A stretch of 24,966 nt of DNA from Sphingobacteriales bacterium (lineage in GTDB: Bacteria > Bacteroidota > Bacteroidia > Sphingobacteriales > Sphingobacteriaceae). The stretch lies in assembly GCA_020058405.1 (NCBI GenBank), contig JAGVEE010000138.1, forward strand, positions 1 to 24,966, in the 5' to 3' direction. Shown here piece by piece: positions 6,476 through 24,537 of this stretch (its first letter is position 1; every line of letters begins with the position of its first letter). The position numbers and the translations under genes were made by a program. Below the pieces are notes generated by a model. It ran no database searches, was not told the DNA's origin, and was given only the letters and a program-made list of their open reading frames with translations.

Positions 6476-6528
6476 TATATGTGCATTTTTTATACTAAAA
6501 ACCGAAATCATCCGTTTAATTGCCCGGC

Positions 6529-6549
6529 TCAAATAATAATATTATTTGA
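6529..6549. repeat. Perfect 9-bp inverted repeat (TCAAATAAT-aat-ATTATTTGA) in the porP-gldK intergenic region
   Basis: Arms 6529-6537 and 6541-6549 are exact reverse complements. Function unknown; the arms are AT-rich. Confidence 0.55.
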
Positions 6550-6613
6550 AAAATAAAAACTGAAAACAAATAAAATTATTCACATTCGTTCTTTATTATT
6601 TAGTATAATATGC

Positions 6614-6621
6614 TAAATTTG
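6614..6621 (+). promoter_or_regulatory. Candidate -7 element (TAAATTTG) for gldKLMN
   Basis: Exact TAnnTTTG 55 nt upstream of the gldK ATG at 6677; no clean -33 TTTG. Confidence 0.6.
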
Positions 6622-6676
6622 TACTTACGGCTTATTTAATTAATTATATAAAAGCAAATTTTTAGTAATGCTTGCT

Positions 6677-7939
6677 ATGAAAAAAATCGCATTGTTCTGT
6701 TTAGCGGGACTAACAACTGTTGTTAGCAGTTGTGGTTTAAACTCTGGTAATGGAGAATTGGTTGGGTCGAATGATCGCCCTAGCTTTAAGCCTTTTATTC
6801 CTTTTGGAATGGTTTACGTTCCATCTGGTACGTATCATATAGGTCAGTCTGATCAAGACATTGCCTATTCTCAAGTGGCGCATAATCGCCAAGTGAGTAT
6901 TAGTGCATTCTATATGGATGAAACTGAAATTACAAACAACGAATACCGTCAGTTTACGGAATACGTTCGCGACTCTATTGTTAAGAAAACATTGGGTGGT
7001 GAGCATATTTTGCAAGATGCAGATGGTAAAGAGTACTTAAACTGGAAAACAAAGTTGAATTACAACGATCCAGCTGTTGTTGAAGCTTTATCTGAATTGT
7101 ATTATCCAGAGGAAGAAAGAATTTTCGGTAGAAAAGAAATTGATAACCGTAAATTGATCTATCACTTAGAGTGGTTCGATTTAACATCGGCTGCAAGTAA
7201 ATCTAACAGAGATAAACCTCGTACTCAATTTATCGTTAAAGAAGATATTCAAGTTTACCCTGATACATTATGTTTCATTTCGGATTTTGCGTATGCATTA
7301 AATGATCCGATGGTAGAAAAATATTTCTGGCATCCAGCATACGACGAATATCCAGTTGTAGGTATTAGCTGGAAACAAGCTCGTGCATTTACAATATGGA
7401 GATCTAGAATGTTAGACGACTTCAAACGTGCACAAGGTGAAGCAGTAATGAATCAATACCGTTTACCAACAGAAGCAGAGTGGGAATACGCATCTCGTGG
7501 TGGTCGTATTAATGCTGATTACCCTTGGGGTGGTCCGTATGCTAGAAACAGCAGAGGTTGTTTATTAGCTAACTTCAAACCAGGTCGTGGTAATTATGGC
7601 GACGATGGTGGTATGCACACTGTAAAAGTTACTTCTTATTTCCCGAATGATTTCGGTTTATACAACATGTCTGGTAATGCTGCAGAGTGGACAAGCACCT
7701 CTTATGATGAGTCTGCTGTAGTATTTATACACGACATGAACCCTAACTACTCTTATGAAGCTAAGCCAGACGATCCAGAAGTATTGAAGCGTAAAGTAAT
7801 ACGCGGAGGTTCTTGGAAAGACATTGGTTTCTTCATGCAAAACGGTACACGTTCTTATGAGTTCCAAGATACTGCGAAGTCATACATCGGTTTCCGTTGC
7901 GTAATGTCGTACATGGGTCGTTCAATCTCTGATGAATAA
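6677..7939 (+). CDS. gldK: T9SS/gliding motility lipoprotein GldK (PorK), FGE-sulfatase fold, ~420 aa
   Basis: Lipoprotein signal MKKIALFCLAGLTTVVSSC; PFGMVYVPSGTYHIG, FYMDETEITNNEYRQF, YRLPTEAEWEYA, FGLYNMSGNAAEW, IRGGSWKD, YIGFRCV; position between porP and gldL. The alternative start at 6668 adds 3 aa. Confidence 0.95.
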   Translation: MKKIALFCLAGLTTVVSSCGLNSGNGELVGSNDRPSFKPFIPFGMVYVPSGTYHIGQSDQDIAYSQVAHNRQVSISAFYMDETEITNNEYRQFTEYVRDSIVKKTLGGEHILQDADGKEYLNWKTKLNYNDPAVVEALSELYYPEEERIFGRKEIDNRKLIYHLEWFDLTSAASKSNRDKPRTQFIVKEDIQVYPDTLCFISDFAYALNDPMVEKYFWHPAYDEYPVVGISWKQARAFTIWRSRMLDDFKRAQGEAVMNQYRLPTEAEWEYASRGGRINADYPWGGPYARNSRGCLLANFKPGRGNYGDDGGMHTVKVTSYFPNDFGLYNMSGNAAEWTSTSYDESAVVFIHDMNPNYSYEAKPDDPEVLKRKVIRGGSWKDIGFFMQNGTRSYEFQDTAKSYIGFRCVMSYMGRSISDE

Positions 7940-8013
7940 TATCATCAACTAAAACGTAAACAATAAAACAATCAATAAATTAATTCACACAAAAATTCAA
8001 ATTATCTATTAAA

Positions 8014-8793
8014 ATGGGCAACTACAAAAAACTAATGGCCAAAGTTTATGGTATTGGCGCGGCTATCGTAATTATCGGTGCATTATTTAAAATCTTACAC
8101 TTAAAATTTGCAAACGAATTATTGATTGTTGGTCTGACGACAGAAGCGTTAATATTTTTCCTTTCAGCTTTTGAAAAACCACATGAAGAATACGATTGGA
8201 CTTTAGTTTATCCTGAATTAGCTGGAATGGACGCTCATAGCAAACCTGCTAAATCTGCTAACAATGGTACTGTTTCACAACAGTTAGATCAAATGTTAGA
8301 AGACGCTAAAATTGGCCCAGAATTAATTGAAAGTTTAGGAACAGGCTTACGCGCATTTGGCGATAAAGTAAGTACTATTTCAAACGTAACGGATGCTGCA
8401 ACTTCTTCAAATGAATTTGCTAGCAAATTAAAACAAGCAACTAAATCAGTTGATGAGTTAACATCTGCTTACTCACAAGCATCTTCTTCTTTATCAGAAA
8501 TTGCTGCTTCATCTTCAGATTCTAAAATGTACCACGAACAAGTTCAAACATTAGCGAAAAATCTTTCTTCGTTAAATGCTATGTATGAGTTAGAATTACA
8601 AGATTCAAACAATCACTTAAAAACATTAAATAAATTCTACGGAAACGTAAATGAAACTATGCAAAACTTTAGCGATTCATTAAACGACGCTAGAGCATTT
8701 AAAGATGAAGTAGGTAAATTATCTAAAAACTTAGCTTCACTAAATGCAGTGTATGGTAATATGTTATCGGCAATGACCGTTAAAGCAAACTAA
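8014..8793 (+). CDS. gldL: T9SS/gliding motor rotor subunit GldL (PorL), 259 aa
   Basis: Two N-terminal TM helices (MAKVYGIGAAIVIIGALFKILH; GLTTEALIFFLSAFE), DWTLVYPEL motif, coiled-coil cytoplasmic domain ending LNAVYGNMLSAM. Confidence 0.96.
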   Translation: MGNYKKLMAKVYGIGAAIVIIGALFKILHLKFANELLIVGLTTEALIFFLSAFEKPHEEYDWTLVYPELAGMDAHSKPAKSANNGTVSQQLDQMLEDAKIGPELIESLGTGLRAFGDKVSTISNVTDAATSSNEFASKLKQATKSVDELTSAYSQASSSLSEIAASSSDSKMYHEQVQTLAKNLSSLNAMYELELQDSNNHLKTLNKFYGNVNETMQNFSDSLNDARAFKDEVGKLSKNLASLNAVYGNMLSAMTVKAN

Positions 8794-8837
8794 TTAAAGG
8801 TTTTATATCTACTAAAAGATTAAATTAATTAAAGAAG

Positions 8838-10370
8838 ATGGCAGGTAAAGAAACCCCAAGGCAGAAGATGATCGGGATGATGTACTTAGTGTTAACAGCA
8901 ATGTTGGCATTAAACGTCTCTGAGGAATTTATGAATGCCTTTAAATTAGTAAACGATGGTTTGGAAACAACTGCGGAGAATTTTGCTGCGGCTAATAAAA
9001 TGACTTATGATGCATTTGAACAGTCGATGAAAAATGATCCAAAGAAAACTGGGCCATACCGTGACAAAGCATTACAAGCTCAAAAATATTCTCAAGAATT
9101 AGACAAATACATTATTGAGTTGAAAAAAGAGCTTACAGCAGAAGCTGGTGGTATTGATGAAGAAACGGGTGATATCGCTAAAAGAAGTGATATGGAAATC
9201 GGTGTTCAATTAATGATCACTAATAAAAAAGGTACTGACTTAAAAACAAAAATTTTAGATACAAGAAAAAAATATCTCGCATTGGTAGATCAATCAGATC
9301 GTTCTAATTTCGATTTCAGCTTAAATGCTGTTGAACCAGGAGCAGATAAAGAAGGTATTAAAAAATCTTGGGAAGGTAAAAATTTCGAAGGTGTACCAGT
9401 AACTGCAATTGTTACTATTCTTTCTAAAATACAAAACGATAATAAAAACGCAGAAGCAGAGGTTACTAAATATTTATTAAGTAAAATTAATGCTTCCGAT
9501 TTTAAATTCGACCAATTAGAGGCAACTGTAGTTGCTCCTACAAGTTATGTGTTAGTTGGACAAACGTATGAAGCAGATGTATTTATTTCTGCATCAAGTT
9601 CTACTCAAAACCCAAGCATTGTAGTTGGCGGACAAACATTAAAAGTGGAGAATGGAAAAGGTAAATACATGGTAACACCTAATAAAGAAGGCTTAGTGAA
9701 ATGGGGTGGTGTTATTAATGTAAAAGGACCAGACGGTGCAATTAAGCCTTACAAATTTGAAGCAGAATACCAAGCAGCAAAACCAACTGCAGTAGTTTCT
9801 GCAGATAAGATGAACGTATTTTACGTAGGTGTTGATAACCCAGTTTCTATTTCTGCACCAGGTGTTCCTAAAGATAAAATTAAAGCAACCATTAATGGTG
9901 AAGGTTCTAGTATTTCTGGATCAAACGGAGTGTACACAGTACGTGTTGCAAAACCAGGTACAAAAGTAATGGTAACTGTTTCTGCTGAAGTTTCTAAAGG
10001 ACAAGTAAAGAATTTAGGTGGTATGGAGTATCGTGTAAAACGTATTCCGGATCCAGTTGCTAAAGTGGCAGGTATAACAAGTGGTAGCATTTCTGCTTCT
10101 TCGTTAAAAGCTCAAAGAGGTGTATTTGCAGTATTAGATAACTTTGATTTCGATTTGAAATTCAACGTAAAATCTTTCTCAGCAATTATTATCAGAGCAC
10201 GCCAAGACTTAATACGTTTACAATCTAACTCTGCAGCTATTACGCCAGAGATGTTAGGTGCGATGAACGGTTTAGGACCAAAAGACAAAGTGATATTTGA
10301 TGATATCGTTGCTTCTGGACCAGACGGTACAAACAGAAAATTGAATTCAGTAGTGATTTCAATTCAGTAA
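8838..10370 (+). CDS. gldM: T9SS/gliding motor subunit GldM (PorM), 510 aa
   Basis: ETPRQKMIGMMYLVLTAMLALNVS N-terminal TM signature; VVSADKMNVFYVGVDNPVSISAPG; YRVKRIPDP. Confidence 0.97.
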   Translation: MAGKETPRQKMIGMMYLVLTAMLALNVSEEFMNAFKLVNDGLETTAENFAAANKMTYDAFEQSMKNDPKKTGPYRDKALQAQKYSQELDKYIIELKKELTAEAGGIDEETGDIAKRSDMEIGVQLMITNKKGTDLKTKILDTRKKYLALVDQSDRSNFDFSLNAVEPGADKEGIKKSWEGKNFEGVPVTAIVTILSKIQNDNKNAEAEVTKYLLSKINASDFKFDQLEATVVAPTSYVLVGQTYEADVFISASSSTQNPSIVVGGQTLKVENGKGKYMVTPNKEGLVKWGGVINVKGPDGAIKPYKFEAEYQAAKPTAVVSADKMNVFYVGVDNPVSISAPGVPKDKIKATINGEGSSISGSNGVYTVRVAKPGTKVMVTVSAEVSKGQVKNLGGMEYRVKRIPDPVAKVAGITSGSISASSLKAQRGVFAVLDNFDFDLKFNVKSFSAIIIRARQDLIRLQSNSAAITPEMLGAMNGLGPKDKVIFDDIVASGPDGTNRKLNSVVISIQ

Positions 10371-10397
10371 TTGAATTAACTCTATAGTATTATAGAC

Positions 10398-11234
10398 ATG
10401 AAAAATAAATTTATCTTATCACTGATTACTTTGCTCTTTGCAGCAAGCATCAGTTTCGCGCAAACGGAACCACCTTTAGATGGGGTGTACCAAAAAATTA
10501 ACGTGAAAACAGCAAGCGTAACGCCTTATGCTCCTTTAAGAGAAGCAGATGCGATGTGGGCTAAACGTGTTTGGAGGGTTATTGATTTGAAAGAAAAACA
10601 AAACCTTGTAATGACGTACCCAAGAGCGAAGCTTATTGACGTAATTATGGACGCTGTGTTAGCAGGTGAATTAACCGCTTACAACCCAAATCCAAGTGGA
10701 CCGAAAGATTTCGGTGATGAATTTAAAGTACCAATGACTCCTGAAGAGGTTGCTCAAATTGGTGCAGGTACAGACACTACAGATGTTGAACAATTAGACG
10801 GAACTTTCCAAACAGTTATTACTGTTCGTGAATTAAACCGCGACGATGTGGTAGCATACCGTGTAAAAGAAGATTGGGTATTCGATAAACAACGCTCTAT
10901 TTACGAGCCACGTATTATTGGTATCGCTCCAATTTTAATTTACAGAAATTCTTCTGGAGAAGAAGTAGGTAAAGGACCATTGTTCTGGATCTATTTCCCT
11001 GAAGCACGTAAAGTATTTTCTAATGCTGAAGTGTTTAACCGCCAAAATGATGCTGCTCGTTTTAGCTATGATGATTTATTTACTCAACGTATGTTTAGTA
11101 GTTATATCACTAAATGGTCTAACGAAAAGGATTTCCGTATCGAAGATTATGCAACAGGTATGGATGGTTTAATTGAAGCAAATAGAATTAAACAAGCATT
11201 GTTCGAATTCGAACATGACTTATGGGAATACTAA
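10398..11234 (+). CDS. gldN: T9SS/gliding ring protein GldN (PorN), 278 aa
   Basis: Signal peptide; YAPLREADAMWAKRVWRVIDL, YRVKEDWVFDKQRS, RIIGIAP, LFWIYFPEAR, C-terminal FEFEHDLWEY. Confidence 0.96.
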   Translation: MKNKFILSLITLLFAASISFAQTEPPLDGVYQKINVKTASVTPYAPLREADAMWAKRVWRVIDLKEKQNLVMTYPRAKLIDVIMDAVLAGELTAYNPNPSGPKDFGDEFKVPMTPEEVAQIGAGTDTTDVEQLDGTFQTVITVRELNRDDVVAYRVKEDWVFDKQRSIYEPRIIGIAPILIYRNSSGEEVGKGPLFWIYFPEARKVFSNAEVFNRQNDAARFSYDDLFTQRMFSSYITKWSNEKDFRIEDYATGMDGLIEANRIKQALFEFEHDLWEY

Positions 11235-11273
11235 GATCTAGTCTTTAGAAATTAGTCATTAGATATTAGAAAG
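11232..11273. repeat. Degenerate 7-bp tandem repeat, 6 units (TAAGATC TAGTCTT TAGAAAT TAGTCAT TAGATAT TAGAAAG)
   Basis: TAG at 11239, 11246, 11253, 11260 and 11267 with exact 7-nt period; the gldN TAA stop at 11232 is in the same register. Confidence 0.8.
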
Positions 11274-11303
11274 AGAGCTGCGGATAACGCGGCTCTTTTT
11301 TTT
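11274..11303 (+). terminator. Rho-independent terminator of gldKLMN
   Basis: Stem AGAGCTGCG (11274-11282) / loop GATAA / CGCGGCTCT (11288-11296) with one G-U pair; T8 run at 11296-11303. Confidence 0.9.
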
Positions 11304-11385
11304 GTTTAGATATTGATGTTTTGTTTAGTATTATTTTGATAATTAGTTATTTGTAATTAAATTGTATTATCTACATCGAAAAAAT

Positions 11386-13596
11386 ATGAAAAATTACTAC
11401 AAATTTACTTACATGATTTTGTTTATGTTAATAATAAGCAAAATAAGTTCTGCTCAATTTAATAGAACATTTAATCAAGACAGTATTTTTTATAAGAATA
11501 ATGCTTGGAATATAAAGATAGATACTTCTTTTATTCCCTTTGATTCGACTAGTGTAATATTAAAATTTAGTTCGAATGTAAATAGAGATGTTATAATAAA
11601 TTATTTACAACTTAAAAACTTAGTTTTAATAGACTCTTTATTCGATTATAAATTATGCAGACTAGATTCCAATTGGATTTTTAGTAGAAGTTTAGATAGT
11701 ATTGAAAGTAATACTCTATTTGAAATAATAGAATTAAATTCTTCTGGAATTCTAACAAATGACCCCAATGATTCTTTATTTCTAAATCAAACACATTTAG
11801 ATACCAATAATAAAGCAGCACTTGATGTTATACGTGCGTGGTATAGTGGCTATGGTAATCAAAACATAATTGTGGCTGTTATTGATCAATATCCAGATTG
11901 GTCACATGACGATATTGGTTTTAGTATCAATGACAATTATAGTAATATTTGGATAAACCCAAAAGAAGACGCATGGGCAGATCCAAATATACCTATTGGT
12001 GATAGTGTTGATAATGATGGGAATGGACTAATTGATGATTGGAAAGGTTGGGATTTTAGAAATAATGATAATGACACAAGACCTTCTATGAATGATGGTG
12101 GGCACGGAACTCAGATTGCTGGAATCATTGGAGCTAAAACAAATAATAGTTTAGGAATTGCCGGTATAGCTGGAGGAAATAACAATCCTGGTGTTCGAAT
12201 AATGCCAATTAACATTATGAAAAAGCATTCTGATGTAGGAGCGTTTTTTACATTTTTTGATTTAGCAAAAGCGATAAATTATGCGGCAGAAAACAATGCA
12301 GATATTATATCCTTGTCTCTGAACACAGGAAATAACACATCGCCATCAGACCTATTGGACTTTGTATTTACAAGAGCATATGAAAAATATAATGTTTTAA
12401 TTTTTTGCTCTTCTGGGAATTATTCATTTGGTAAAATTTATTATCCTTCATCGCACCCTTTAGTATACTCAGTTGGCGGTATTAATTTAGAAGCCACAGA
12501 GAATATGTTTACGTTTGGTGATTATAATAACAACAAAATATTAGATTTTGTAGCTATTGGCGAATACATTTACACAACTACAGTTGGAAATCAGTACATA
12601 GCAAACATAAGGGGTACGTCTTTTGCTTCTCCTCAAGTATCAGGTATAGCAGCATTAATACTATCTAGTTACCCTTGTTTAACGAATAGTGCTGTTTATG
12701 AGGTAATGAAAGGTACTGCCAAAAGAAATATTTTCCCAAATCACGTATTGGAGTTTGAATTTGAGAATGGGACCTTGTCTAATGAATTTGGATATGGAAT
12801 CCCTTATGCTGTAAATGCTCTAGCTTTATTAAATTCTTATGAGCTTACAAACTATACAGTTTCAACTTCTGAAGCAATTAGCTCTACTAAGATAGCTTTG
12901 GAGGACATAATAGTTGAATCTGGAGGGATCTTGAATATTTCTGGCGAACTCCAAATGTCTGAAGATAAAAAAATTGTTGTACAACCTGGTGGCAAGTTAA
13001 TTATTGATGGCGGAAAGATAACAAGTGGTTGTGGTTGGAAAGGTATAGAAGTAATAGGCTTAGCTACTGAAAATCAAAATACAAGCAGTTTTGGTTTTGT
13101 AGAGATAAAAAACAATGCAACCATAGAACATGCCATGGTTGCAATTAGGTCTATTGATGGAGGTGTCGTACAAACGAAATCTGAGTCCGTATTTAGAAAC
13201 AATTACCAGTCTATTGTATTTGAAAAATATACAAATAACCATCAACATACAATTATAGAAAACACTAAATTCCTTTGCGATGGCCCGGTATTAAAATTAC
13301 TCAAAGGTGCTACAGGTAGAGTACAAGCTAGTAAAGAGTTTATTCGTATTGCAGAGACTTCAAAAATTAATATTGAAGATTGCGAGTTTATTAATGAGTT
13401 TAAAGGGAAAGGCATTTATTCTAAAGTAATTGGTGTAAATATGTATAATGCTAAATTTATAACGATACAAGATGCAAATGTTTTTAATGGGTTATCAATT
13501 GGTATAAATGCAGCTAGTTTAAATGGGCTATTAAATTTTTACAATATTAAGAGTAATACATTTACTAATGTAGATGAATCAATTAAAAATTTATAA
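11386..13596 (+). CDS. S8 (subtilisin-like) serine peptidase with prodomain and start of a beta-helix region; N-terminal part of a frameshifted T9SS cargo gene
   Basis: Signal peptide (MKNYYKF...ISSA/Q); catalytic Asp VAVID (11884), His GHGTQIAGIIGA (12103), oxyanion Asn SSGN (12418), Ser GTSFASPQVSGIAALILS (12619); DNDGNGLIDDWKGWDF Ca-loop-like insert. No C-terminal sorting domain in this frame. Confidence 0.9.
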   Translation: MKNYYKFTYMILFMLIISKISSAQFNRTFNQDSIFYKNNAWNIKIDTSFIPFDSTSVILKFSSNVNRDVIINYLQLKNLVLIDSLFDYKLCRLDSNWIFSRSLDSIESNTLFEIIELNSSGILTNDPNDSLFLNQTHLDTNNKAALDVIRAWYSGYGNQNIIVAVIDQYPDWSHDDIGFSINDNYSNIWINPKEDAWADPNIPIGDSVDNDGNGLIDDWKGWDFRNNDNDTRPSMNDGGHGTQIAGIIGAKTNNSLGIAGIAGGNNNPGVRIMPINIMKKHSDVGAFFTFFDLAKAINYAAENNADIISLSLNTGNNTSPSDLLDFVFTRAYEKYNVLIFCSSGNYSFGKIYYPSSHPLVYSVGGINLEATENMFTFGDYNNNKILDFVAIGEYIYTTTVGNQYIANIRGTSFASPQVSGIAALILSSYPCLTNSAVYEVMKGTAKRNIFPNHVLEFEFENGTLSNEFGYGIPYAVNALALLNSYELTNYTVSTSEAISSTKIALEDIIVESGGILNISGELQMSEDKKIVVQPGGKLIIDGGKITSGCGWKGIEVIGLATENQNTSSFGFVEIKNNATIEHAMVAIRSIDGGVVQTKSESVFRNNYQSIVFEKYTNNHQHTIIENTKFLCDGPVLKLLKGATGRVQASKEFIRIAETSKINIEDCEFINEFKGKGIYSKVIGVNMYNAKFITIQDANVFNGLSIGINAASLNGLLNFYNIKSNTFTNVDESIKNL

Positions 13597-14959
13597 TTCT
13601 CGTGCTCATATACATAACAATGATTTTGAATTAACTAGTAATGCTGAAATTTCAGGCAATAATTTTATTCCATCTGTAGGAGTTTATACTTTGGGCTCGA
13701 TGGTTAAAATTACAGATAATAGCTTTAGTACAGATTTTAATGATGATGGTTATGGCATGGTAATTCGCAATACTAAAACTTTATTTGAAAGTAAAATTGA
13801 AGGAAATTCAATTTCCAATTTGCGTTTTGGAACTCAATTAGAGCAAGCTAATAAAAGACTTCGGTTATATTGCAACAGTTATAGCAATATATCTCTAAAC
13901 GATTGGAGTGTGAATCCTATTTATGCTGGTGATAATTTATTGCCAATGCAAGGAACATCATTATCAACATTAGAACCCGGATTAAGAAGGGCTGGCAATT
14001 TATTTTATGATAGAGATATTGAAGAGTTATCAACTAAACATATTCGATCTAGTTTTGGGTTTAAATATAATGCTGCAAATTCACCTGATGAAGCAGTTCC
14101 TGAATACATTAGCCCAAATGTCGAAGTTGAGCCGTTTTTTGAATCTAATAACATATCTTGTTCAGTAGAAGAGCTACCTTGTGTATTGTCACCTTGTAAT
14201 CCATCAGAATGGCAAGAGTTATTATTAAATACTTCTGAGGAAGATTCAATTGTTTTTTATCAACAAGAGTTATTATACTCTATTGCTCAACAAGACGATA
14301 TTTCTGAATCTGTGAGCATACTAGAATTATTATCAGATTCAGTAGATTATTTGGAACTTTTAATTGGTATACATATAAATTTGAACAATTATGAGGCGGC
14401 TAGTTTTGCATTACAAAATCATTCTGTAATAACTGAGCGCGACCAAGATTATTATAATTTTTACACAAGCATTTTGGATAGAGAATTTAACGAAATCCCT
14501 TCCGACTCCATACCAAATTCAGACAGTACTCTGTATGCTGATATAATGAGCCATGGAAACGATGTATCCGATTTAGTTAAAGCATATCTCAATTTTAATT
14601 TCGATTCTAGTTTTGTGGTTTCTCCAGAATTATGGGAAGAAGAATCGTCGAGACCAATTTTTAATCCAGAACAAAATAGTAAGGATAGAACCTATAATCA
14701 AAAAACAAAACTTAACACTTCAATCCATCCAAACCCCAGTAATAAAGAGTTATTTGTCTCATATATTTCTAATGAACACAATCAGCTAACCATTTCAATA
14801 AGTAATGTATTAGGTGAAATTGTTCTAAATAAATTAGAACTCAAAAATAACATACGCGAGAAAATTGAAATAAATAATATTCCTTCTGGAGTCTATTATA
14901 TAAGTTTTAATTCAGAACATGGCAGAATATCCGTAGAAAAAATTGTTATTATTCATTGA
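13574..14959 (+). CDS. C-terminal part of the same gene: parallel beta-helix repeats, acidic helical region, T9SS type A C-terminal sorting domain
   Basis: No signal peptide; IxxNxF repeats (IHNNDF, ITDNSF, IEGNSI, LYCNSY); CTD SIHPNPSNKELFV...NVLGEIV...IPSGVYYISF...EKIVIIH. In the +1 frame relative to the upstream ORF, overlapping it by 23 nt. Confidence 0.85.
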   Translation: MNQLKIYNSRAHIHNNDFELTSNAEISGNNFIPSVGVYTLGSMVKITDNSFSTDFNDDGYGMVIRNTKTLFESKIEGNSISNLRFGTQLEQANKRLRLYCNSYSNISLNDWSVNPIYAGDNLLPMQGTSLSTLEPGLRRAGNLFYDRDIEELSTKHIRSSFGFKYNAANSPDEAVPEYISPNVEVEPFFESNNISCSVEELPCVLSPCNPSEWQELLLNTSEEDSIVFYQQELLYSIAQQDDISESVSILELLSDSVDYLELLIGIHINLNNYEAASFALQNHSVITERDQDYYNFYTSILDREFNEIPSDSIPNSDSTLYADIMSHGNDVSDLVKAYLNFNFDSSFVVSPELWEEESSRPIFNPEQNSKDRTYNQKTKLNTSIHPNPSNKELFVSYISNEHNQLTISISNVLGEIVLNKLELKNNIREKIEINNIPSGVYYISFNSEHGRISVEKIVIIH

Positions 14960-14961
14960 TT

Positions 14962-16485
14962 ATGAAAGCTAGTTTAGTTATTACTTTATTTTTCCTACTT
15001 ACTATTTCAAAAATTAGTTTAAGTCAAAATACTTTTTCAAAGTTTTATGATAACAATACAAATGGAAACCGAATTTCTGACCAAGGACATGATTTTCACG
15101 TTTTAAAAGATTCTGGATTTTTATTTCCGACTATTTCAGTTAATTTATATGAAATTGACACATTTAACTTTGCTGTTTCTTATTTACAAATCATAAGAAC
15201 AAATAAAATAGGAGATACAGTTTTTAAAAAAGTATACAGAAGAAAGAATCATAATATAGTAACAAAATATATCGTAAAAAATAGCGATTCTTCATTTCTT
15301 CTTGCTGGTTATATCTTCGATTTGGTTAAATACAAAGCAGATTCTACTGGTGCAGAAATACTATTGGTGAAAATTAATTTAAACGGAGATACCCTATGGA
15401 CAAAAACAGTAGGAATTAGTGATGGAGATGAATTAGTATCGCGAATCATTAGTACCAATGATGGAGGGTTCGCCATTTTTGGCCAAACTTGCAACAAAAA
15501 AGAAACAAACTGTGATTACTTTCTAATGAAGGTTGATAGCAATGGCACTAAACTATGGCAGAGTACTTATTCATTAAATGCTAATTCATGGGAATTGCCT
15601 CAATCTGTTATTGAAACAAAAGAAAAAGGATTCTTAATGGTTGGGCATACTACTGGTGGTATTAATTCTGTCATAGTGAAAGTAGATTCTTTAGGAAAGC
15701 AATTATGGAAAAAAAGTTTTAATAAAAATGGTGCAACATTTTCATTTGTAATAAATGTTTATCATGCTGAAAATAACACCTATTTATTTGTAGGTGGGAT
15801 TGGGAATAGTGTATCTCATAAAGGTTGGATTTTACGAACAGATACCTCTGGTAAATTTATAAAGGAAACTAGAACCGGTAAAGACGGTTATTATACTACC
15901 TTTAGAGCACTAGTAGAAAGTGATGACAAAATTTATGCACAAGGTGAAACAAAAGAATACGTGCTCCCTCAATCAGACGATTTACAAACTTGCCTATACG
16001 CTTTTACCAGCACAGGAGACCCTTTATGGCGTAGAACTTACCCAGATTCATTAGTAAAAAATAAAAGATATTTGATTTACGATATGAAGCCTTCCTTAGA
16101 CAATGGTTTTGCCATGATTGGTTTTGGTATGGACCCCCAAGCAACTAATCCTCAAAACAATCAAGATGTATGGTTTTTAAAAGTAGACAGCAACGGCTGC
16201 TTGTACCAACCGTGTGTAGATATGACCGTGGGAATAAATAAAATGCATGAAAAATTAGCAGCAGTCAAGATTTATCCTAATCCAAGTAAAGGGCATTTTT
16301 TTATTGAAACAGATGAAAAAATTAAAGAAATAGAGGTATTTGATTTATTAGGGCAAAGTGTTTATATGAACTTGAATTTAGTGAAGAATGAAATAAATAT
16401 CAGTCATCTTGATAATGGATTTTATGTTATAAAAATCATCATGCTTTCTGGTATAGAGTATTCAGAACGAGTTATTAAACAATAA
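14962..16485 (+). CDS. T9SS type A CTD protein with seven (K/R)xDxxGxxxW-type repeats (probable 7-bladed beta-propeller), ~507 aa
   Basis: Signal peptide MKASLVITLFFLLTISKISLS/Q; repeats RTNKIGDTVF, KINLNGDTLW, KVDSNGTKLW, KVDSLGKQLW, RTDTSGKFI, AFTSTGDPLW, KVDSNGCLY; CTD KIYPNPSKG...FDLLGQ...LDNGFYVIKI...RVIKQ. The propeller fold is inferred from the repeats. Confidence 0.82.
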   Translation: MKASLVITLFFLLTISKISLSQNTFSKFYDNNTNGNRISDQGHDFHVLKDSGFLFPTISVNLYEIDTFNFAVSYLQIIRTNKIGDTVFKKVYRRKNHNIVTKYIVKNSDSSFLLAGYIFDLVKYKADSTGAEILLVKINLNGDTLWTKTVGISDGDELVSRIISTNDGGFAIFGQTCNKKETNCDYFLMKVDSNGTKLWQSTYSLNANSWELPQSVIETKEKGFLMVGHTTGGINSVIVKVDSLGKQLWKKSFNKNGATFSFVINVYHAENNTYLFVGGIGNSVSHKGWILRTDTSGKFIKETRTGKDGYYTTFRALVESDDKIYAQGETKEYVLPQSDDLQTCLYAFTSTGDPLWRRTYPDSLVKNKRYLIYDMKPSLDNGFAMIGFGMDPQATNPQNNQDVWFLKVDSNGCLYQPCVDMTVGINKMHEKLAAVKIYPNPSKGHFFIETDEKIKEIEVFDLLGQSVYMNLNLVKNEINISHLDNGFYVIKIIMLSGIEYSERVIKQ

Positions 16486-16496
16486 TTATATTTTTG

Positions 16497-18293
16497 CTAA
16501 TTGTTTGTGAAGAATTCTTTCAGCGCAATCAATTGTTTTTTGTTGAGCACTACGCTCAATTCCTCATCACTCGCTTCTCTAATCCGTTTTACCGATTTAA
16601 ATTTTATCAGCAATTTTTCGATGGTTGTTTTGCCTACTCCTGGAATTTCTTCTAACTCAGATTTGAGCGTTCCTTTATCACGTTTGCTTCTGTGGAAAGT
16701 TATACCGAAACGATGAGCCTCGTCTCGTAAATGCTGAATAATTTTTAAACTCTCCGATTTTTTATCAATATACAATGGTAAAGAATCGCCTGGATAGTAA
16801 ATTTCTTCTAACCTTTTTGCGATTCCTATAATAGTTACTTTCTTATCAATGCCTAGCTTCGCTAAACTTGCCACTGCCGATGATAATTGACCCTTACCGC
16901 CATCAATAACAATTAACTGAGGCAAATCCTGCTCTTCTTCTAGTAGTCGCTTATAGCGCCTAAAAACGGCTTCCTCCATGGTGGCAAAATCATTCGGACC
17001 TTCAACGGTTTTTACATTAAAATGCCTATAATCTTTTTTAGAAGGCTTTGCATCTTTAAACACCACAATTGCCGACACTGGATACTTGCCCTGAAAGTTT
17101 GAATTATCAAAACACTCAATGTGCTTTGGTAATTGATTCATTCGTAAATCTTTTTGAAGTTGCAATAAAACCCTTTCTGTTCGTGCCTCAGGGTTTACCT
17201 TTTCGTACTGTTCTAATTTAGATTTCTTAAAAAACAGAACATTTTTCATCGATAAATCTAAAAGACTTTTTTTATCGCCTAATTTGGGAACTATAAACTT
17301 TATGTTTTCTTTCGTGTCAATATTTAATTCGAAGGGAACAATAATTTCTTTTGCAGTACTGCTAAATTTATTTCTAAAATCAGAAATCGCTAAGCTTAAT
17401 AATTCCTCATCACTCTCATCTAATTTTTTTCTAATTTCAATGGTTTGAGTTTGAGAGATGGTACCCTTGTTTACTTTTAAATAATTTACGAAAGCTATTT
17501 TTTCATCAGAGCTAATCGCGAACACATCAATATTATCAATAATGGTACTTACTACCGTTGATTTACTTTGGTAATTCTCTAAAGTATCTATTTTCTCCTT
17601 CACCAAATTTGCCAACTCAAAATTCATATTCGCTGCTGCATCGTTCATCTCAGCATTTAAATGTTGGAGCACGGGTGTAATGTTTCCTCTTAAAATTTCT
17701 TTAATTTCTTTTATGTTTTCTTCATAGCTCTCAAAACTTTGAAAAGCTTGACAAGGTCCTTTACAATTGCCAATTTGATATTCTAAACAGACTTTAAATT
17801 TGCCTGCATTGATATTTGCTTCTGTAAGTGCTAAGCTGCAAGTTCTAATAGGGTATAAGGTTTTTATTAATTCGAGTATGGTACTCATCATACGTACCGA
17901 AGCATACGGACCTAAATAGGTCGAGCCGTCTTTAATGATATTTCGAGTTGGGAAAATTCTCGGGAATCTTTCTTTTTTTATACAAATAGACGGATAGGTT
18001 TTATCGTCTTTTAATAAAACGTTATATCGAGGTTGATGTTTTTTTATTAAAGAATTCTCTAATAACCATGCATCAATTTCAGTATCAACAATCGTAAATT
18101 TTATATCTCGAATTTTTTTTACGAGAATTTTTGTTTTAGAATTTACATTGTCGTTATTAAAATAAGAAGAAACTCTGTTGCGTAAATCTTTTGCTTTTCC
18201 AATATAAATTAAGGTGCCTTCTTCATCGTAATACTGATACACTCCGGGCTTATGCGGAATGTTTGCTAAGGCTGCACGATAATCAAACATCAT
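16497..18293 (-). CDS. uvrC: Excinuclease ABC subunit C, 598 aa
   Basis: GIY-YIG N-terminus (PGVYQYY...IYIGKAKDLRNRVSSYF), CLEYQIGNCKGPC, IECFDNSN, LIVIDGGKGQL, RDEAHRFGITFHR, HhH motif LEEIPGVGK. Confidence 0.97.
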   Translation of the reverse strand: MMFDYRAALANIPHKPGVYQYYDEEGTLIYIGKAKDLRNRVSSYFNNDNVNSKTKILVKKIRDIKFTIVDTEIDAWLLENSLIKKHQPRYNVLLKDDKTYPSICIKKERFPRIFPTRNIIKDGSTYLGPYASVRMMSTILELIKTLYPIRTCSLALTEANINAGKFKVCLEYQIGNCKGPCQAFQSFESYEENIKEIKEILRGNITPVLQHLNAEMNDAAANMNFELANLVKEKIDTLENYQSKSTVVSTIIDNIDVFAISSDEKIAFVNYLKVNKGTISQTQTIEIRKKLDESDEELLSLAISDFRNKFSSTAKEIIVPFELNIDTKENIKFIVPKLGDKKSLLDLSMKNVLFFKKSKLEQYEKVNPEARTERVLLQLQKDLRMNQLPKHIECFDNSNFQGKYPVSAIVVFKDAKPSKKDYRHFNVKTVEGPNDFATMEEAVFRRYKRLLEEEQDLPQLIVIDGGKGQLSSAVASLAKLGIDKKVTIIGIAKRLEEIYYPGDSLPLYIDKKSESLKIIQHLRDEAHRFGITFHRSKRDKGTLKSELEEIPGVGKTTIEKLLIKFKSVKRIREASDEELSVVLNKKQLIALKEFFTNN

Positions 18294-18308: not shown

Positions 18309-20510
18309 TTAAAACTCTAAGCCAGGGTTGCTAGTACCTTGATTGTTCTTTTTATATTGATCGCAATCTACAACTATGCTTAGTCCTCCTGGTGGAGCTT
18401 CAAAATCTCGCATAGAAATAGAAAGGCTTGCATCACCATACACTTTTTTCATGTACAATGCCCAAATTGGCAAGGCGGTATTTGCGCCTTCACCTAAATT
18501 TGTTGATCTAAAATGTACAATTCTATCCTCGGCACCGGTCCAAGTTCCAGAAACTAAATCGGGTGTAATGCCAATAAACCATCCATCAGAGTTTTCTTGT
18601 GTAGTACCCGTTTTACCGGCAATAGGGTTTGTAAATCTATAGCGTGGTCCGCGTAAACGCAAACCTGTACCTTTATCAATTACACCCTTCATCATGTAAA
18701 TCATTAAATAAGCTGTTTGTTCACTTAAAGCATCCACTTTACGCGGCACTTTTTCAAAAAGTACATTTCCGTTTTTATCTTCTATTCTTGTAATGTACAC
18801 TGGTTCGGTCCACACACCTTTATTTGCATAGGTTGAATAAGCACCTACCATTTCATATAAACTTACATCTGGCGTACCTAAACAAATAGATGGGTAAGGA
18901 GGAATTTCACTCGTGATGCCCATTTTCTTCGCCACATTTACAACCGCTTGTGGGCCTACTTGCTTCATCATGTATGCTGTAATTAAATTTACAGAATTTG
19001 ATAAGCCCATTCTCAAAGTCATCATGCCGCCATCTTTCCCATCAGAATTTTTAGGCGACCAATTATCGAAATCTTCAAACACAATTGGCAAATTGGGTGC
19101 TTCAAAACAAGGCGACCAGCCATTGTCCATGGCAACAGTATACACTAAAGGTTTAAATGTAGAACCTACTTGGCGCTTTCCAGTTTTTACTTGATCGTAT
19201 TTAAAGTATCTGTAATCTGGTCCGCCTACCCAAGCTTTTATATGGCCAGTGTGCGGGTCCATCGACATAAAACTAGAACGTAAGTACCATTTATAATATT
19301 TAATAGAATCTAAGGGAGTCATTGTTGTATCTCTATCGCCAGTCCATGTAAACACTGTCATGGAAGTTGGAGTATCAAATACTTTTCTTATTTCCTCATC
19401 ACTTGCACCTTCCTCTTTCATCAACATATAACGCTCACTTCGTTTCATAGAAAGGCTTATAATATCAGTGTTTTTACCCCAAGGTGTTCTGCCTTTCCAA
19501 TGGTTGTTAAACTCTTTCTGAAGGTAAGTTAAATGCTCTTTCACTGCTTCCTCTGCATAACGTTGCATGCGCGAATCGAGTGTAGTGTAAATTTTCAATC
19601 CATCTCTATATAAATCATAAGGCTCGCCGTCTGATTTTGTGTTTTCTTTGCACCAAGCTTGCAATTCAATTCGCAAGTATTCTCTAAAGTATGTTGCTAA
19701 ACCTTGGTTATGTGTAGGGCTTGTAAATTTTAAATTTAATTCTGATGAAATCGCTTCTTCGTATTCTGTCTCGGTGATGTAGCCATATTTTTCCATTTGG
19801 GCCAATACTACATTTCTTCTTCTTAGAGAACGGTCTGGGTTACGAATTGGTGAATAAACAGTAGTGCCTTTTAGTATTCCAACTAGCAATGCTGCTTCAT
19901 CAATTTTTAACTCAGAAGGTAGTTTGTTGAAATATGTTTTTGCTGCTGTTTTTATACCGAATGAATTATTTCCAAATTCAACAGTATTAAAATACATGGT
20001 AATAATTTCTTCTTTGGTATAGTTACGTTCAATTTTTATAGCCGTTAACCATTCTTTTAGTTTGATGATTCCAATGTTGAAAATGGTTTGTTTTTTGCGT
20101 GGAAATAAGTTTTTTGCTAATTGTTGTGTGATGGTACTAGAACCTCTTTTTTTACCAATAGCCGAGTAAAATATAATTGCAAAAGTGCCTTTTAAATCGA
20201 TACCAGAATGTTCGTAAAAACGAATATCCTCCGTAGCAATTAATGCATTAATTAAATTAGGTGATAAATCTTTGAATTTTGTGTTTGATCTGTTTTGTAT
20301 ATAGTAAGCACCTAGCACTTGCCCGTCTGTAGAAATAACTTCAGAAGCTAAACTGCTTTTCGGATTTTCTAAATCTCTAAAAGTCGGCAATTCACCAAAC
20401 AAGCCAAAGCCAACAGAGCTAATTAATAATACAACAAATAAAAATCCTCCAACAATAATTTGCCAGAATCTTTTTATATATGTGTTGCCAGTGGATGATT
20501 TATTACTCAT
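18309..20510 (-). CDS. mrcA: Class A penicillin-binding protein (PBP1A-type transglycosylase/transpeptidase), 733 aa
   Basis: N-terminal TM; GT51 motifs EDIRFYEHSGID, GSSTITQQLAKNLF, LKEW...IERNYTKEEI; transpeptidase SxxK (GSTFKP), SxN (SVN), KTG (GKTGTT). Confidence 0.92.
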   Translation of the reverse strand: MSNKSSTGNTYIKRFWQIIVGGFLFVVLLISSVGFGLFGELPTFRDLENPKSSLASEVISTDGQVLGAYYIQNRSNTKFKDLSPNLINALIATEDIRFYEHSGIDLKGTFAIIFYSAIGKKRGSSTITQQLAKNLFPRKKQTIFNIGIIKLKEWLTAIKIERNYTKEEIITMYFNTVEFGNNSFGIKTAAKTYFNKLPSELKIDEAALLVGILKGTTVYSPIRNPDRSLRRRNVVLAQMEKYGYITETEYEEAISSELNLKFTSPTHNQGLATYFREYLRIELQAWCKENTKSDGEPYDLYRDGLKIYTTLDSRMQRYAEEAVKEHLTYLQKEFNNHWKGRTPWGKNTDIISLSMKRSERYMLMKEEGASDEEIRKVFDTPTSMTVFTWTGDRDTTMTPLDSIKYYKWYLRSSFMSMDPHTGHIKAWVGGPDYRYFKYDQVKTGKRQVGSTFKPLVYTVAMDNGWSPCFEAPNLPIVFEDFDNWSPKNSDGKDGGMMTLRMGLSNSVNLITAYMMKQVGPQAVVNVAKKMGITSEIPPYPSICLGTPDVSLYEMVGAYSTYANKGVWTEPVYITRIEDKNGNVLFEKVPRKVDALSEQTAYLMIYMMKGVIDKGTGLRLRGPRYRFTNPIAGKTGTTQENSDGWFIGITPDLVSGTWTGAEDRIVHFRSTNLGEGANTALPIWALYMKKVYGDASLSISMRDFEAPPGGLSIVVDCDQYKKNNQGTSNPGLEF

Positions 20511-23112
20511 TGCTTATTAAATAATTACCATTGTAAAATTGAATGTATTTTTTTACTGCTTTGCTTTCTCTTAATGTTTTTAAATTACGTTCAGAAATAA
20601 AAGAAATTACATAGGTATTAGGTTTTAACTTTATTACTTCGTTTGTTTTTTTAGTTAAGGCATTAATGTATTCGCGTGCACTTGCTACATCTTCAAAGTT
20701 TTCAATTAGTAATAGTTGCTCTTTTTCTCCTAACAATTCAGAATTTATTCGCAAACTTTTTAATGAAAATTCGGTGATGTTAAAACGAACCAAATTGTTT
20801 TTTGTATCACGCAACACAGACATGTCTGTAGAAATCATTACAATATACTTCGCTCTGTTTTCTAATTCAAAATTTATCGGATCTTCTTCTCTAGCTGCTT
20901 TTAACGCTGGATTTTTTTGTTCTTCAATTTTCTTTAAATGTTCACGTGCCATACTAGCGGCATCTGATGATGGGAAGTCGTTTAACAATTTTTGTAATGA
21001 AGCCTCAAATGCAGTTTGCCCATTTACTTTATTTTGTGTTAAGGCATATAAATAATAGTATTTTGGTGCGATGCTAGTTTTGGAGTATTGAGTATCTATT
21101 CTTGATTTCGAACTAAATACTGCTTCATAACTTCCGTTTTTATAGGCATCATAAATATTATCGTAAAAATGCTGAGCAGCTAAATCGTTAGCTTTTGCTT
21201 CTGATATATATGATGGATCTAAAATTACTTTTGCAATTAAAGAATTAGGAAAATCACTTAAAATTTTATTCTTGTAATATTCGCTTTGCTGTTTATTGTT
21301 CACTTCAGCATATAATCTATATAAGTTGAAATATATTTCGGCGCGAAGCTTATTATCTGGAAATTGTGACACACAAGTTTCATATGCTTTTATAGATTCT
21401 TTCAAATTAATGATTTCTTCTCTATAAAACTGTCCAATATTATAATATGCTTTTACCATTTTATCGGTTGAAGCAGTTAAGGCAGCAGGTGTTGTTGGGA
21501 TGTTTGCTAAATATCTTTTCTTTATGGCAGCATCGTCATTTTTATTTGCAGCACTCCCTTTTTCTTCTGCATTTGTTTCTCCATTATTCGGTGCAGTTAT
21601 TGTAGCGTATGATTCTTTGTTAGATCTTCTCCAATTATCTTCTAATGTTCTTCGACCATACTTTTTAACAAAGTCTGCATTTCCCAAGCCTATAGAATTT
21701 TGATTATAAAAATACCAAGTACTACCTGAGCCAACATTTGTTGCATTTGTAGTAACACCATCACCTGGCCTGGAAATATTATTGAGTGCCTGTTCAGCTA
21801 TTCTTTTTTCTTCTTCTTGTTGTCGAATTTTTTCTTCCTTTTCTTTTTTAATTACTTTCTCTACATAAGCTATTCGCTCAGATTCAGGCATTCGAGCAAG
21901 TCTCATTAAACTATCTTCACGTTGAATGATAATTAAATTTTCAACTAATTTTGTTAAACTATTTTTGCGTTTGTTTACGAATTCGAAATCGGGATTTGAT
22001 TTTGGTAAGAATGTACCAGCACTGTCATAATACATTTGTGAAATCTGGTAACGCTCTCTATCGTAATAAATATTTGCTAATTTAAAATAGGCTAATCCTT
22101 TTTGACTTAAATTATTTACACTGCTAGCAGCAGAAGATTTAAATGCATCTACCATTTTTTCTTCTTCCTCATCTTTCTCATAAATCAATCCAAGGGAATA
22201 ATAAATTTGATCTCTAAATTCTTTGTTCTTCGAATCGTTAAGCATTTTTATTAATTCTTTCTCTAGATTTTTTTTAGAGCCAGCTGTGCTTCTTTGCACT
22301 AATCTTGCGGAATTTATTTTTGCATTAAACAACAAATCGTAAGCAGGATTCATTTTTACTACTTGTTGGTATTTAACACCTGCTTTACCATCTTCGTTTA
22401 TTTTTTCTAACAGTTGAGCAGTAATGTAAGTATACCTAGCACGTTTGTTTTTTTTCTTTTGAATAACGGTAGCCTTCTCTAAATATTCAACAGCCTTGGC
22501 ATAATTTTTTTTGTCAATATAATACCATGCAACTGTTGCAAATAATTCTGAGATGTGTTTCTTAGGAAAAGTTTCACTAGCAAGCGCAATGTTTATTACC
22601 GACTCAGCCTGTGGATATTTTTTTAATAAGATGTAACATTTTATGAGCCAGATGTACGACTTGTCGCCCACTTCTTTGTCTTTATACCTGCCTGCTGCAA
22701 ACTGAAAAGTTTCTGCAGCCGTGAAATAATCTTTTTTATAAAAATAAGCCCTGCCAATTTCAAAATAACAATCGTCGATCCACTTACTACGTTCATGCCT
22801 TTGAACCACAAGAGAAGCTTTTTTAATGGCCTCGTCCATGGCTTGGTTGCCGCCACCTTTTCCAGATTTTGCTTCAGACTCTTCTTTTGCAATTTTAAAC
22901 ACAGGCAGAATATCATCATATCTATCCTGAAACGACTTGTCGTTTTGTTTCTCGGTATTGTCTATTTTAAGTTTTGCATTGAAATATCCATTATAATGAG
23001 CGGTTATATCATGGTAAATTTTCCCGATTGCAGATTTCTTGCTCGATTTACATGAGCTCAAAACCAAAATCATTACAATGTATATAGATATTTTGAGGGA
23101 ATTCGTTTTCAA
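20503..23112 (-). CDS. sprE: TPR lipoprotein SprE/PorW (T9SS/gliding component), 869 aa
   Basis: TTG start, lipobox LSSC, then YHDITAHYNGYFNA (SprE/PorW-type N-terminal motif as I recall it), many TPR-like helices, RTLEDNWRRSNK; length matches my recollection of SprE (~870 aa). Confidence 0.8.
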   Translation of the reverse strand: MKTNSLKISIYIVMILVLSSCKSSKKSAIGKIYHDITAHYNGYFNAKLKIDNTEKQNDKSFQDRYDDILPVFKIAKEESEAKSGKGGGNQAMDEAIKKASLVVQRHERSKWIDDCYFEIGRAYFYKKDYFTAAETFQFAAGRYKDKEVGDKSYIWLIKCYILLKKYPQAESVINIALASETFPKKHISELFATVAWYYIDKKNYAKAVEYLEKATVIQKKKNKRARYTYITAQLLEKINEDGKAGVKYQQVVKMNPAYDLLFNAKINSARLVQRSTAGSKKNLEKELIKMLNDSKNKEFRDQIYYSLGLIYEKDEEEEKMVDAFKSSAASSVNNLSQKGLAYFKLANIYYDRERYQISQMYYDSAGTFLPKSNPDFEFVNKRKNSLTKLVENLIIIQREDSLMRLARMPESERIAYVEKVIKKEKEEKIRQQEEEKRIAEQALNNISRPGDGVTTNATNVGSGSTWYFYNQNSIGLGNADFVKKYGRRTLEDNWRRSNKESYATITAPNNGETNAEEKGSAANKNDDAAIKKRYLANIPTTPAALTASTDKMVKAYYNIGQFYREEIINLKESIKAYETCVSQFPDNKLRAEIYFNLYRLYAEVNNKQQSEYYKNKILSDFPNSLIAKVILDPSYISEAKANDLAAQHFYDNIYDAYKNGSYEAVFSSKSRIDTQYSKTSIAPKYYYLYALTQNKVNGQTAFEASLQKLLNDFPSSDAASMAREHLKKIEEQKNPALKAAREEDPINFELENRAKYIVMISTDMSVLRDTKNNLVRFNITEFSLKSLRINSELLGEKEQLLLIENFEDVASAREYINALTKKTNEVIKLKPNTYVISFISERNLKTLRESKAVKKYIQFYNGNYLISNE

Positions 23113-23153: not shown

Positions 23154-23234
23154 TTTTATTTAATGATATTCTTTTAAAACTTATTACGATTAAGTACAAT
23201 TCGATAAAAATGGTTTAATTTGTAAGCATTGCGT

Positions 23235-24104: not shown

Positions 24105-24108
24105 AATT

Positions 24109-24537
24109 ATGTTTGAGAAGAAAGAACACAAAACAACTAAAGAGAACGAGTTAAATGGCTCGATTAATTTAATTGGACAAGGAACTACGATTACAGGCGA
24201 TATGTCTTGTAAAGGAGATATACGTATTGATGGGGAGATTGTAGGCAATGTGATATCAAAAGCGAAAGTTGTAATTGGAGCAACAGGGAAAGTGGTTGGC
24301 GATATTATAGGCACTAACGCAGATATTTCTGGGCAGTTAACTGGCGACTTAACGGTTTCAGATACCATATTTTTAAAATCTTCGGCAAGAATAGAAGGCG
24401 ATATGGTTACTAATAAGTTAATTGTAGAGTCGGGGGCAATTTTCAGCGGAAATTGTAACATGGGAATATCATCAGAGAAAGGATATTCGTCAAAAATAAA
24501 GACTGAAAAATCTCTTCAAGAAATAGAGGGCAATTGA
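24109..24537 (+). CDS. Bactofilin (polymer-forming cytoskeletal protein, CcmA/BacA family), 142 aa
   Basis: Right-handed beta-helix signature LIGQGTTITGDM...IRIDGEIVGNV...VVIGATGKVVGDI...IEGDMVTNKLIVESGAIFSGNCNM. Confidence 0.93.
   Translation: MFEKKEHKTTKENELNGSINLIGQGTTITGDMSCKGDIRIDGEIVGNVISKAKVVIGATGKVVGDIIGTNADISGQLTGDLTVSDTIFLKSSARIEGDMVTNKLIVESGAIFSGNCNMGISSEKGYSSKIKTEKSLQEIEGN

Follow-up and report, generated by a model that had tools for sequence, protein, structure and literature searches.

Stalked type IX secretion cargo proteins with interchangeable heads are usually encoded next to a seven-bladed propeller protein in Bacteroidia

Type IX secretion system (T9SS) cargo proteins that carry a type-A C-terminal domain (CTD), such as the gingipains and mirolase, are the closest described relatives of the two proteins considered here. 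In Porphyromonas, cargo of this kind passes through the outer membrane, has its CTD removed, and becomes attached through its new C-terminus to surface lipopolysaccharide (e.g., PMC8545088). The two genes under study lie side by side in a 24,966-nt stretch of DNA from a Sphingobacteriales bacterium (GenBank assembly GCA_020058405.1, contig JAGVEE010000138.1); this whole stretch is referred to as the window, and features are on the plus strand unless stated otherwise. Gene 1 encodes a subtilase carried on a long stalk, and gene 2 encodes a predicted seven-bladed beta-propeller. As with the gingipains and mirolase, both products have a signal peptide followed by glutamine and a Por_Secre_tail domain that scores above the curated cut-offs, and T9SS core genes are present in the same window. 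In contrast to these proteins, gene 1 is built on a constant stalk (beta-helix plus helical region) and is paired with a propeller-CTD gene. No description of such a cargo family was found in the literature, nor any paper on the constant stalk, the interchangeable heads, or the propeller neighbour, which agrees with the view of an initial reading of this DNA (the first-pass annotation) that no module with this architecture has been characterised. Both proteins are ordinary type-A CTD cargo; what appears to be new is the constant stalk, the interchangeable heads, and the near-obligate propeller neighbour. The pair is one copy of a widespread module, far more general than was initially proposed, and it is near certain that this module is conserved.

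Other described systems resemble parts of the locus. Type V autotransporter passengers (the serine protease autotransporters of Enterobacteriaceae, SPATEs, and the subtilase autotransporters) also present an N-terminal protease head on a long right-handed beta-helix, and gene 1 has a weak NCBIfam match to the autotransporter peptidase EprS. However, gene 1 has no C-terminal beta-barrel translocator and ends instead in a helical bundle and an 80-residue CTD sandwich; export through a T9SS CTD and the helical bundle behind the stalk thus distinguish it from type V proteins, among which the propeller partner gene has no counterpart. The KLIKK/potempin pairs of Tannerella forsythia likewise consist of a T9SS protease gene with an exported gene directly after it, but the partner in the present module, a 45-kDa propeller, goes with the stalk rather than with the protease class, and it also accompanies heads that are not proteases. 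Gene 2 is similar to CylK and the SBBP (PF06739) propellers (profile A1 against CylK, E value 3e-31; related Atlas clusters combine SBBP with Por_Secre_tail), although its identity to CylK is approximately 15%, it lacks the N-terminal domain of CylK, and there is no hint of alkylating chemistry. Another CTD-bearing beta-propeller protein on the cell surface is PorZ (PMC8545088), but it contains two propellers and is a single-copy component of the machinery that is not paired with stalk genes; it was not among the 50 best Foldseek matches of gene 2.

The two genes comprise the following features (aa, amino acids; ORF, open reading frame):

11386-14959, plus strand: gene 1 as a whole, with signal peptide, S8 subtilase, right-handed beta-helix, helical bundle, and type-A CTD
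11386-13596 (ORF from 11362), plus strand: 5' ORF of gene 1, with signal peptide, putative prodomain, S8 head, and first beta-helix rungs, ended by a TAA that the frameshift creates
11860-12798, plus strand: Peptidase S8 catalytic domain (PF00082, 127.1 bits, aa 167-479 of the ORF starting at 11362)
12886-14146, plus strand: predicted right-handed parallel beta-helix stalk (AlphaFold2 model m094f8d73c742, residues 1-421), which spans the frameshift
13574-14959, plus strand: 3' ORF of gene 1, which ends in Por_Secre_tail
13585-13589, plus strand: run of five As (A5) in which one A is surplus; the resulting +1 frameshift divides gene 1 between ORFs 11362-13596 and 13574-14959
14147-14599, plus strand: predicted helical bundle of ~150 residues, the second half of the conserved stalk (AlphaFold2 model residues 422-572)
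14714-14959, plus strand: type-A T9SS CTD of gene 1 and its TGA stop (PF18962, 46.5 bits; TIGR04183, 36.5 bits; CTD sandwich at model residues 611-689)
14962-16485, plus strand: gene 2, 507 codons, with signal peptide (aa 1-21), propeller (aa ~25-408), Cys413/Cys418, and type-A CTD (aa 437-507)

The first-pass annotation described the first partner as a protease followed by a beta-helix, a helical region, and a CTD, and this domain order is borne out by Pfam (S8 and Por_Secre_tail) and AlphaFold2. The start codon, ATG 11386, is shared with a sister locus (L038, described below), and the hydrophobic N-terminus, as read by eye from the translation, ends in SSA/QF with glutamine after the cleavage site. 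Approximately 140 residues separate the signal peptide from the S8 domain, for which the PF00082 match spans profile positions 2-288 of 288. The motifs of the catalytic triad are legible (VAVIDQ for Asp, GHGTQIAG for His, and GTSFASP for Ser), as is the oxyanion motif SSGN. The part behind the S8 domain was modelled by AlphaFold2 from nt 12886 onward, with an X placed at the frame break; the model (predicted local distance difference test score, pLDDT, 82.8) consists of a beta-helix of about 420-430 residues, the helical bundle, a linker, and the CTD sandwich. The CTD itself occupies the last ~80 residues (curated cut-offs are 27 bits for PF18962 and 23 bits for TIGR04183). By VIA-align, the beta-helix matches many beta-helix proteins with Z scores of 18-21.5 over 290-356 residues, the top match being the Vag8 passenger (Z 21.5) and others including tailspikes, NosD, AlgE4, and PL6 lyases, and weaker Foldseek matches include PL6 lyases, AlgG, and tailspikes. 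Identity to these structures is 8-16%, and no subfamily stands out. The structural matches establish the modelled stalk as a beta-helix fold and point to no particular chemistry. A Pfam scan of gene 1 itself returned no beta-helix model, and the relative P0130 carries PF13229. The GH167 structure 9whd was considered as kin of the helical region and rejected, as the match essentially covers the CTD. The most conserved block of the stalk (QxExxN...CNxY...WSVNP...QG...RAGNLF; A4 positions 318-374) falls within the window ORF 13574-14959 and maps to the last beta-helix rungs, which adjoin the helical bundle; it may be a functional site or a site at which the propeller docks.

For gene 2, the initial description as seven repeats, a cysteine pair, and a CTD is likewise supported by the sequence and by a predicted propeller. 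Seven repeats of the form K/R-x-D/N-x-x-G-x-x-x-W/F are legible, followed by a GCxxxxC pair, and AlphaFold2, run with a 19-sequence family alignment, predicts seven blades closed by an N-terminal strand together with a CTD sandwich (pLDDT 82.8). The CTD scores 47.6 bits with Por_Secre_tail and 47.4 bits with TIGR04183. The signal peptide ends in SLS/QN, and Gln22, which follows the cleavage site, is invariant in 19 homologues; it matches the Bacteroidetes Q-rule, i.e., glutamine after the signal-peptide cleavage site (PMC5837995). C413 and C418 likewise do not vary across the 19 sequences; in the 12 closer ones, conservation of C177/C184 is 90% or higher. The first-pass annotation had drawn attention to cysteine clusters in both proteins; the quoted motifs are present and the C413/C418 pair is invariant, but only one cysteine of the gene 1 cluster is nearly invariant in the alignment with orthologues. 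The best Foldseek match of gene 2 is the CylK propeller (E value 1e-14, template modelling score, TM, 0.60), and the other structural matches are generic propellers, including BtuG, a surface propeller that captures ligands. Its Atlas neighbours are uncharacterised Bacteroidota proteins that combine SBBP, Reg_prop, or PQQ_2 repeats with Por_Secre_tail. PF06739 (SBBP) gave no match in gene 2 at E <= 0.01 and did not reach its gathering threshold, and the NCBIfam model Lepto_SBBP_lipo scored 35 bits against a cut-off of 400; the relationship to SBBP is thus drawn at the profile level (CylK) and from the Atlas neighbours. Neither gene 1 nor gene 2 belongs to a specific Pfam or NCBIfam family.

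Pairing of the two genes was surveyed in 40 related genomes and, class-wide, in 201 evenly drawn Bacteroidia genomes representing 122 genera. Among the relatives, each of the nine non-self homologues of the C-terminal part of gene 1 has a gene 2 homologue directly downstream in the same orientation. Close gene 2 homologues, often as tandem duplicates, occur at 13 loci, of which ten are paired and three (L032, L033, and L035) contain the propeller only; upstream of the orphan propeller in L035, no stalk-gene remnants were found. The junctions of the close pairs are a stop/start codon overlap or 0-5 nt (TAATG, ATGA, TAGATG), and in the window, the TGA of gene 1 (14957-14959) and the ATG of gene 2 (14962) leave a spacer of 2 nt. 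The observation that two CTD-bearing genes lie 2 nt apart is therefore correct, with Por_Secre_tail on both, and the proposal that they form a conserved, tightly coupled cargo module is sustained by the relatives. Across the class, the stalk profile without its CTD matched in 72 of 201 genomes (57 of 122 genera), a tally that includes one unpublished genome, G118, on which no other result depends. Forty top-ranked stalk loci with ~6 kb of downstream sequence were then inspected, of which two end at a contig edge and 38 were scored. A member of the propeller family lies immediately downstream on the same strand in 29 of these, often as two to four tandem copies, and two further loci have a different propeller with a CTD in the same slot (Kelch in L163, DUF5122 in L187). 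By a rough estimate, chance adjacency is well under 1%, as there are few such propeller genes among the thousands of genes per genome. The concern that homologues might occur mostly alone, raised in the first-pass annotation, does not hold for the stalk, whereas the three propeller-only loci show that the propeller can stand by itself. The genome of the window contains a second module on another contig (G000:C189; L165:401-4076), in which a PKD-headed stalk protein of 934 aa is directly followed by a propeller that is cut by the contig end.

Further observations concern the neighbourhood of these modules. In nine of the 38 loci, a third gene recurs after the propeller; it encodes ~300 aa with a signal peptide, a domain of no recognised type, no Pfam family, and Por_Secre_tail (e.g., L154:3642-4523, L171:4439-5362, L172:2524-3510, L185:3256-4335, L187:4329-5270, and L191:4800-5696). 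By blastp, these copies are related to one another (down to 1e-25); a counterpart is absent from the window. In L121 (5001-10436) and L122 (5001-9548), large genes for T9SS cargo of the stalk type, one with a lipase-like and one with a C25 head, are located inside ribosomal-protein operons, one between rplE and rpsN and the other between rpmD and rplO-secY, and no propeller gene follows either of them. These two loci also have no match to the helical domain, as would be expected if that domain determined the presence of a propeller; a propeller in the absence of any recognisable helical match is nevertheless seen in L086, L123, and many class-wide loci.

The stalk itself is widespread and is combined with very different heads. 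An exhaustive profile search without the CTD recovered 7,329 protein clusters (50% identity) with E <= 1e-3, and 3,682 clusters passed E <= 1e-30. Almost all of the 150 top representatives have a full stalk that ends ~90 residues before the C-terminus, and the head measures from 0 to 1,765 residues; coreHel, a hidden Markov model of the helical bundle, was found in 137 of the 150. The large partners in related genomes share only the region behind the S8 domain, and their heads are S8, sortilin/BNR-like, PKD, SprB repeats, or without a recognised domain. According to precomputed Pfam assignments, a search with the stalk alone retrieved S8, C25, C1, GH18, lipase-like, and sortilin heads, always together with Por_Secre_tail. 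When 94 representative heads were scanned, S8 was found in 20, M43 in nine, SprB repeats in four, and M12 and sortilin-like domains in three each, with single cases of M4, trypsin-like, and ice-binding-like domains; most heads had no Pfam match. The N-terminal enzyme domain is thus swapped among loci, as the first-pass annotation had suggested should be examined, and the exchanged heads include S8, M43, M12, M4, C25, C1, GH18, sortilin-like, and PKD domains.

This exchange bears directly on the idea, put forward in the first-pass annotation, that the propeller inhibits its cognate S8 protease or keeps it latent. An exported gene right after a secreted protease gene does resemble the arrangement of the potempins. 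However, the same propeller family occurs after GH18, sortilin-like, PKD, SprB-repeat, M43-like, and unrecognised heads, and propeller and stalk show parallel sequence divergence. A head-specific inhibitor is unlikely, since the presence of the propeller depends on the stalk irrespective of the head and does not track the protease class. In addition, the ~140 residues ahead of the S8 domain could, by their position, serve as a prodomain of the protease itself, and a 45-kDa propeller is unlike the small potempins. Taken together, we regard an inhibitory role as highly improbable.

The stalk and the propeller have also been inherited together. Their distance matrices, which include paralogous modules within one genome, correlate with r = 0.95, a value reached in none of 5,000 permutations. 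More telling evidence of a link is provided by a fusion lineage in three divergent genomes (L177, P0279, and P0297), in which a single ORF encodes the beta-helix, the helical bundle, a shared beta-sandwich-like linker of ~100 residues, the propeller, and one CTD. No internal CTD or signal peptide is detectable in these three ORFs, and no separate propeller gene lies downstream of P0297 and P0279. Tandem arrays of two to four propeller genes per stalk gene are found in L173, L156, and L048. In L062 (7539-13530) and L156 (111-6120), propeller genes alternate with fragments of 160-280 aa that have no signal peptide and repeat the 3' end (helical region and CTD) of the stalk gene upstream of them, from which it follows that the duplicated unit reaches across the gene boundary. 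The small ORFs of L062, L056, and L114 had been considered as a "minimal module" of helical-CTD protein plus propeller, but, being devoid of signal peptides and duplicates of the large gene's 3' end, they were dismissed as debris of tandem duplication.

That the propeller tracks the constant stalk rather than the head is also what would be expected of a factor that assists assembly of the stalk or stabilises it outside the cell and is required only during folding or attachment of the large protein after T9SS passage. Large beta-helices fold slowly, and tight translational coupling would supply both proteins together. Nonetheless, the presence of two to four propeller genes per stalk gene and the permanent fusion are easier to reconcile with a structural partner than with a helper that acts transiently, and seven of the scored stalk genes have no propeller downstream. 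Such a role is therefore considered improbable, though less so than that of an inhibitor.

In the window, gene 1 is interrupted by the frameshift at the A5 run, which raises the question of whether the module is functional in this organism. Intact orthologues of 1,194-1,234 aa exist, and the alignment with them is continuous across the run. The sister locus L038, from another metagenome-assembled genome (MAG; GCA_943372925.1), has the same synteny, a gene 2 that is 97% identical, and four As at the frameshift site; it carries an in-frame TAA at the position of AAA 13775-13777 in the window. A contig from an independent run, 98% identical (6 differences in 370 nt), contains one A fewer, and three other runs contain relatives with 110 nt versus 111 nt in a diverged patch at the frameshift; these run comparisons relied on Logan contigs of relatives or near-identical strains in place of the source reads. 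For each part of gene 1, comparison of the window with L038 gives a ratio of nonsynonymous to synonymous divergence (dN/dS) of 0.10-0.13, and gene 1 has therefore been under purifying selection. The surplus A, which is specific to this assembly, most likely reflects an error of assembly or a strain variant of very recent origin, and not an old pseudogene. The opposite view would be that the module is dying in this organism, i.e., that gene 1 is a true pseudogene and gene 2 alone is functional. Two related MAGs with distinct disruptions between the head and the CTD are in keeping with such decay, but the dN/dS values indicate purifying selection through nearly all of the divergence time, the 98%-identical contig from another run keeps the intact four As, and both records are MAGs, that of the window being fragmented (419 contigs) and 77% complete. 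We consider decay unlikely, although it deserves more weight than the inhibitor or assembly-factor explanations. Independently of this question, synonymous divergence from L038 over window positions 11386-18293 varies ~20-fold (0.036 for gene 2, 0.16 for the C-terminal part of gene 1, 0.71 for the S8 head, and 0.55 for uvrC), with hyper-diverged patches at 12743-12946 and 13474-13586. This unevenness suggests a recombination mosaic or a consensus from mixed populations.

The reading that we favour, and consider moderately probable, is that the conserved, coupled T9SS module produces a co-secreted two-subunit surface complex, in which the propeller is the base, docking, or ligand-binding subunit of the stalked enzyme. 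For a physical complex of stalk and propeller as such, the chances appear roughly even. Both proteins would use Sec to pass the inner membrane and the T9SS to pass the outer one, whereupon PorU-type processing, as in type-A cargo of Porphyromonas, would remove the CTDs and tether the new C-termini to the cell surface. Such anchoring would bring the propeller and the helical stalk end together at the membrane-proximal base, where they would act as one complex, and the beta-helix would project the enzyme head outward. The domain order in the fusion ORFs agrees with a membrane-proximal propeller. Surface anchoring is extrapolated from Porphyromonas and may apply here by analogy.

Several points weigh against this two-subunit complex. 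Adjacency and matching trees show that the genes are inherited as a unit, not that their products bind one another. The small helical-CTD ORFs in L062 and L056 do not pin the link with the propeller to the helical domain. Seven of the 38 scored stalk genes have no propeller downstream and three of the 13 close propeller loci have no stalk gene, and the partnership is therefore not obligatory. Gene 1 is broken at different sites in two MAGs (the frameshift in the window, the TAA in L038), with gene 2 intact in both; if both breaks are real, the propeller can be retained without its partner. Finally, many T9SS cargo proteins in other Bacteroidota are released and not anchored.

Part of this evidence would fit two co-inherited and co-expressed proteins, each anchored at the surface or released, that serve one task without binding each other, for example if the propeller captures a substrate or product while the stalked enzyme degrades the polymer. 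The propeller-only loci, the stalk genes without a propeller, and the near-identical, intact gene 2 beside an interrupted gene 1 in the two MAGs are all compatible with such independence, as is the occurrence of ligand-capturing surface propellers such as BtuG among the Foldseek matches. However, the stalk and the propeller form one chain in three divergent genomes, the stop/start codon overlap is conserved, and the propeller follows the stalk whatever the head and hence cannot match the substrate of the head. Independent action is therefore rather unlikely, and the two-subunit complex remains our preferred reading.

Upstream of the pair, the window contains the following features:

5543-11234, plus strand: porP/sprF, gldK, gldL, gldM, and gldN, in this order upstream of gene 1
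~11273-11305, plus strand: intrinsic terminator after gldN, a GC-rich hairpin followed by T8, found by direct reading of the sequence

The hairpin is absent from the listing of a consensus scanner. Given the terminator between gldN and gene 1, genes 1 and 2 constitute a transcription unit apart from gldKLMN. A tie to the gld operon was considered and ruled out, since the terminator follows gldN and the pair is sited elsewhere in other genera; indeed, the closest intact pairs (L039 and L043/L024) have no adjoining gld genes. The position directly after the secretion motor, noted in the first-pass annotation, is thus incidental. A sigma-70 promoter scan of the window returned 32 sites versus 31.5 expected. 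GldK in the window has an FGE-sulfatase fold. Downstream of gene 2 lies a convergent uvrC, and the window also encodes a tetratricopeptide repeat (TPR) protein, which was initially labelled sprE/porW. Farther along (20503-23112 and 23229-24537), Pfam matches show a TPR protein that overlaps a gene for a class A penicillin-binding protein, and an M23 peptidase that is followed by a bactofilin.

T9SS cargo is usually treated as a collection of single proteins that share only the CTD, whereas the present analysis reveals a large and unnamed cargo architecture. It occurs in approximately one third of the sampled Bacteroidia genomes, its heads are interchangeable and mostly proteases, and approximately four fifths of its genes are followed by a propeller-CTD gene. 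Tentatively, stalk and propeller may represent a general two-component display platform of Bacteroidia, in which the propeller is a dedicated base that docks on the beta-helix/helical end and any head can be exchanged; such a platform would be the T9SS counterpart of the autotransporter passengers, but one that needs a partner. If the complex is real, it would explain how many degradative enzymes are presented on the surfaces of Bacteroidota, including abundant polymer-processing freshwater lineages, and it would provide a natural scaffold for surface display.

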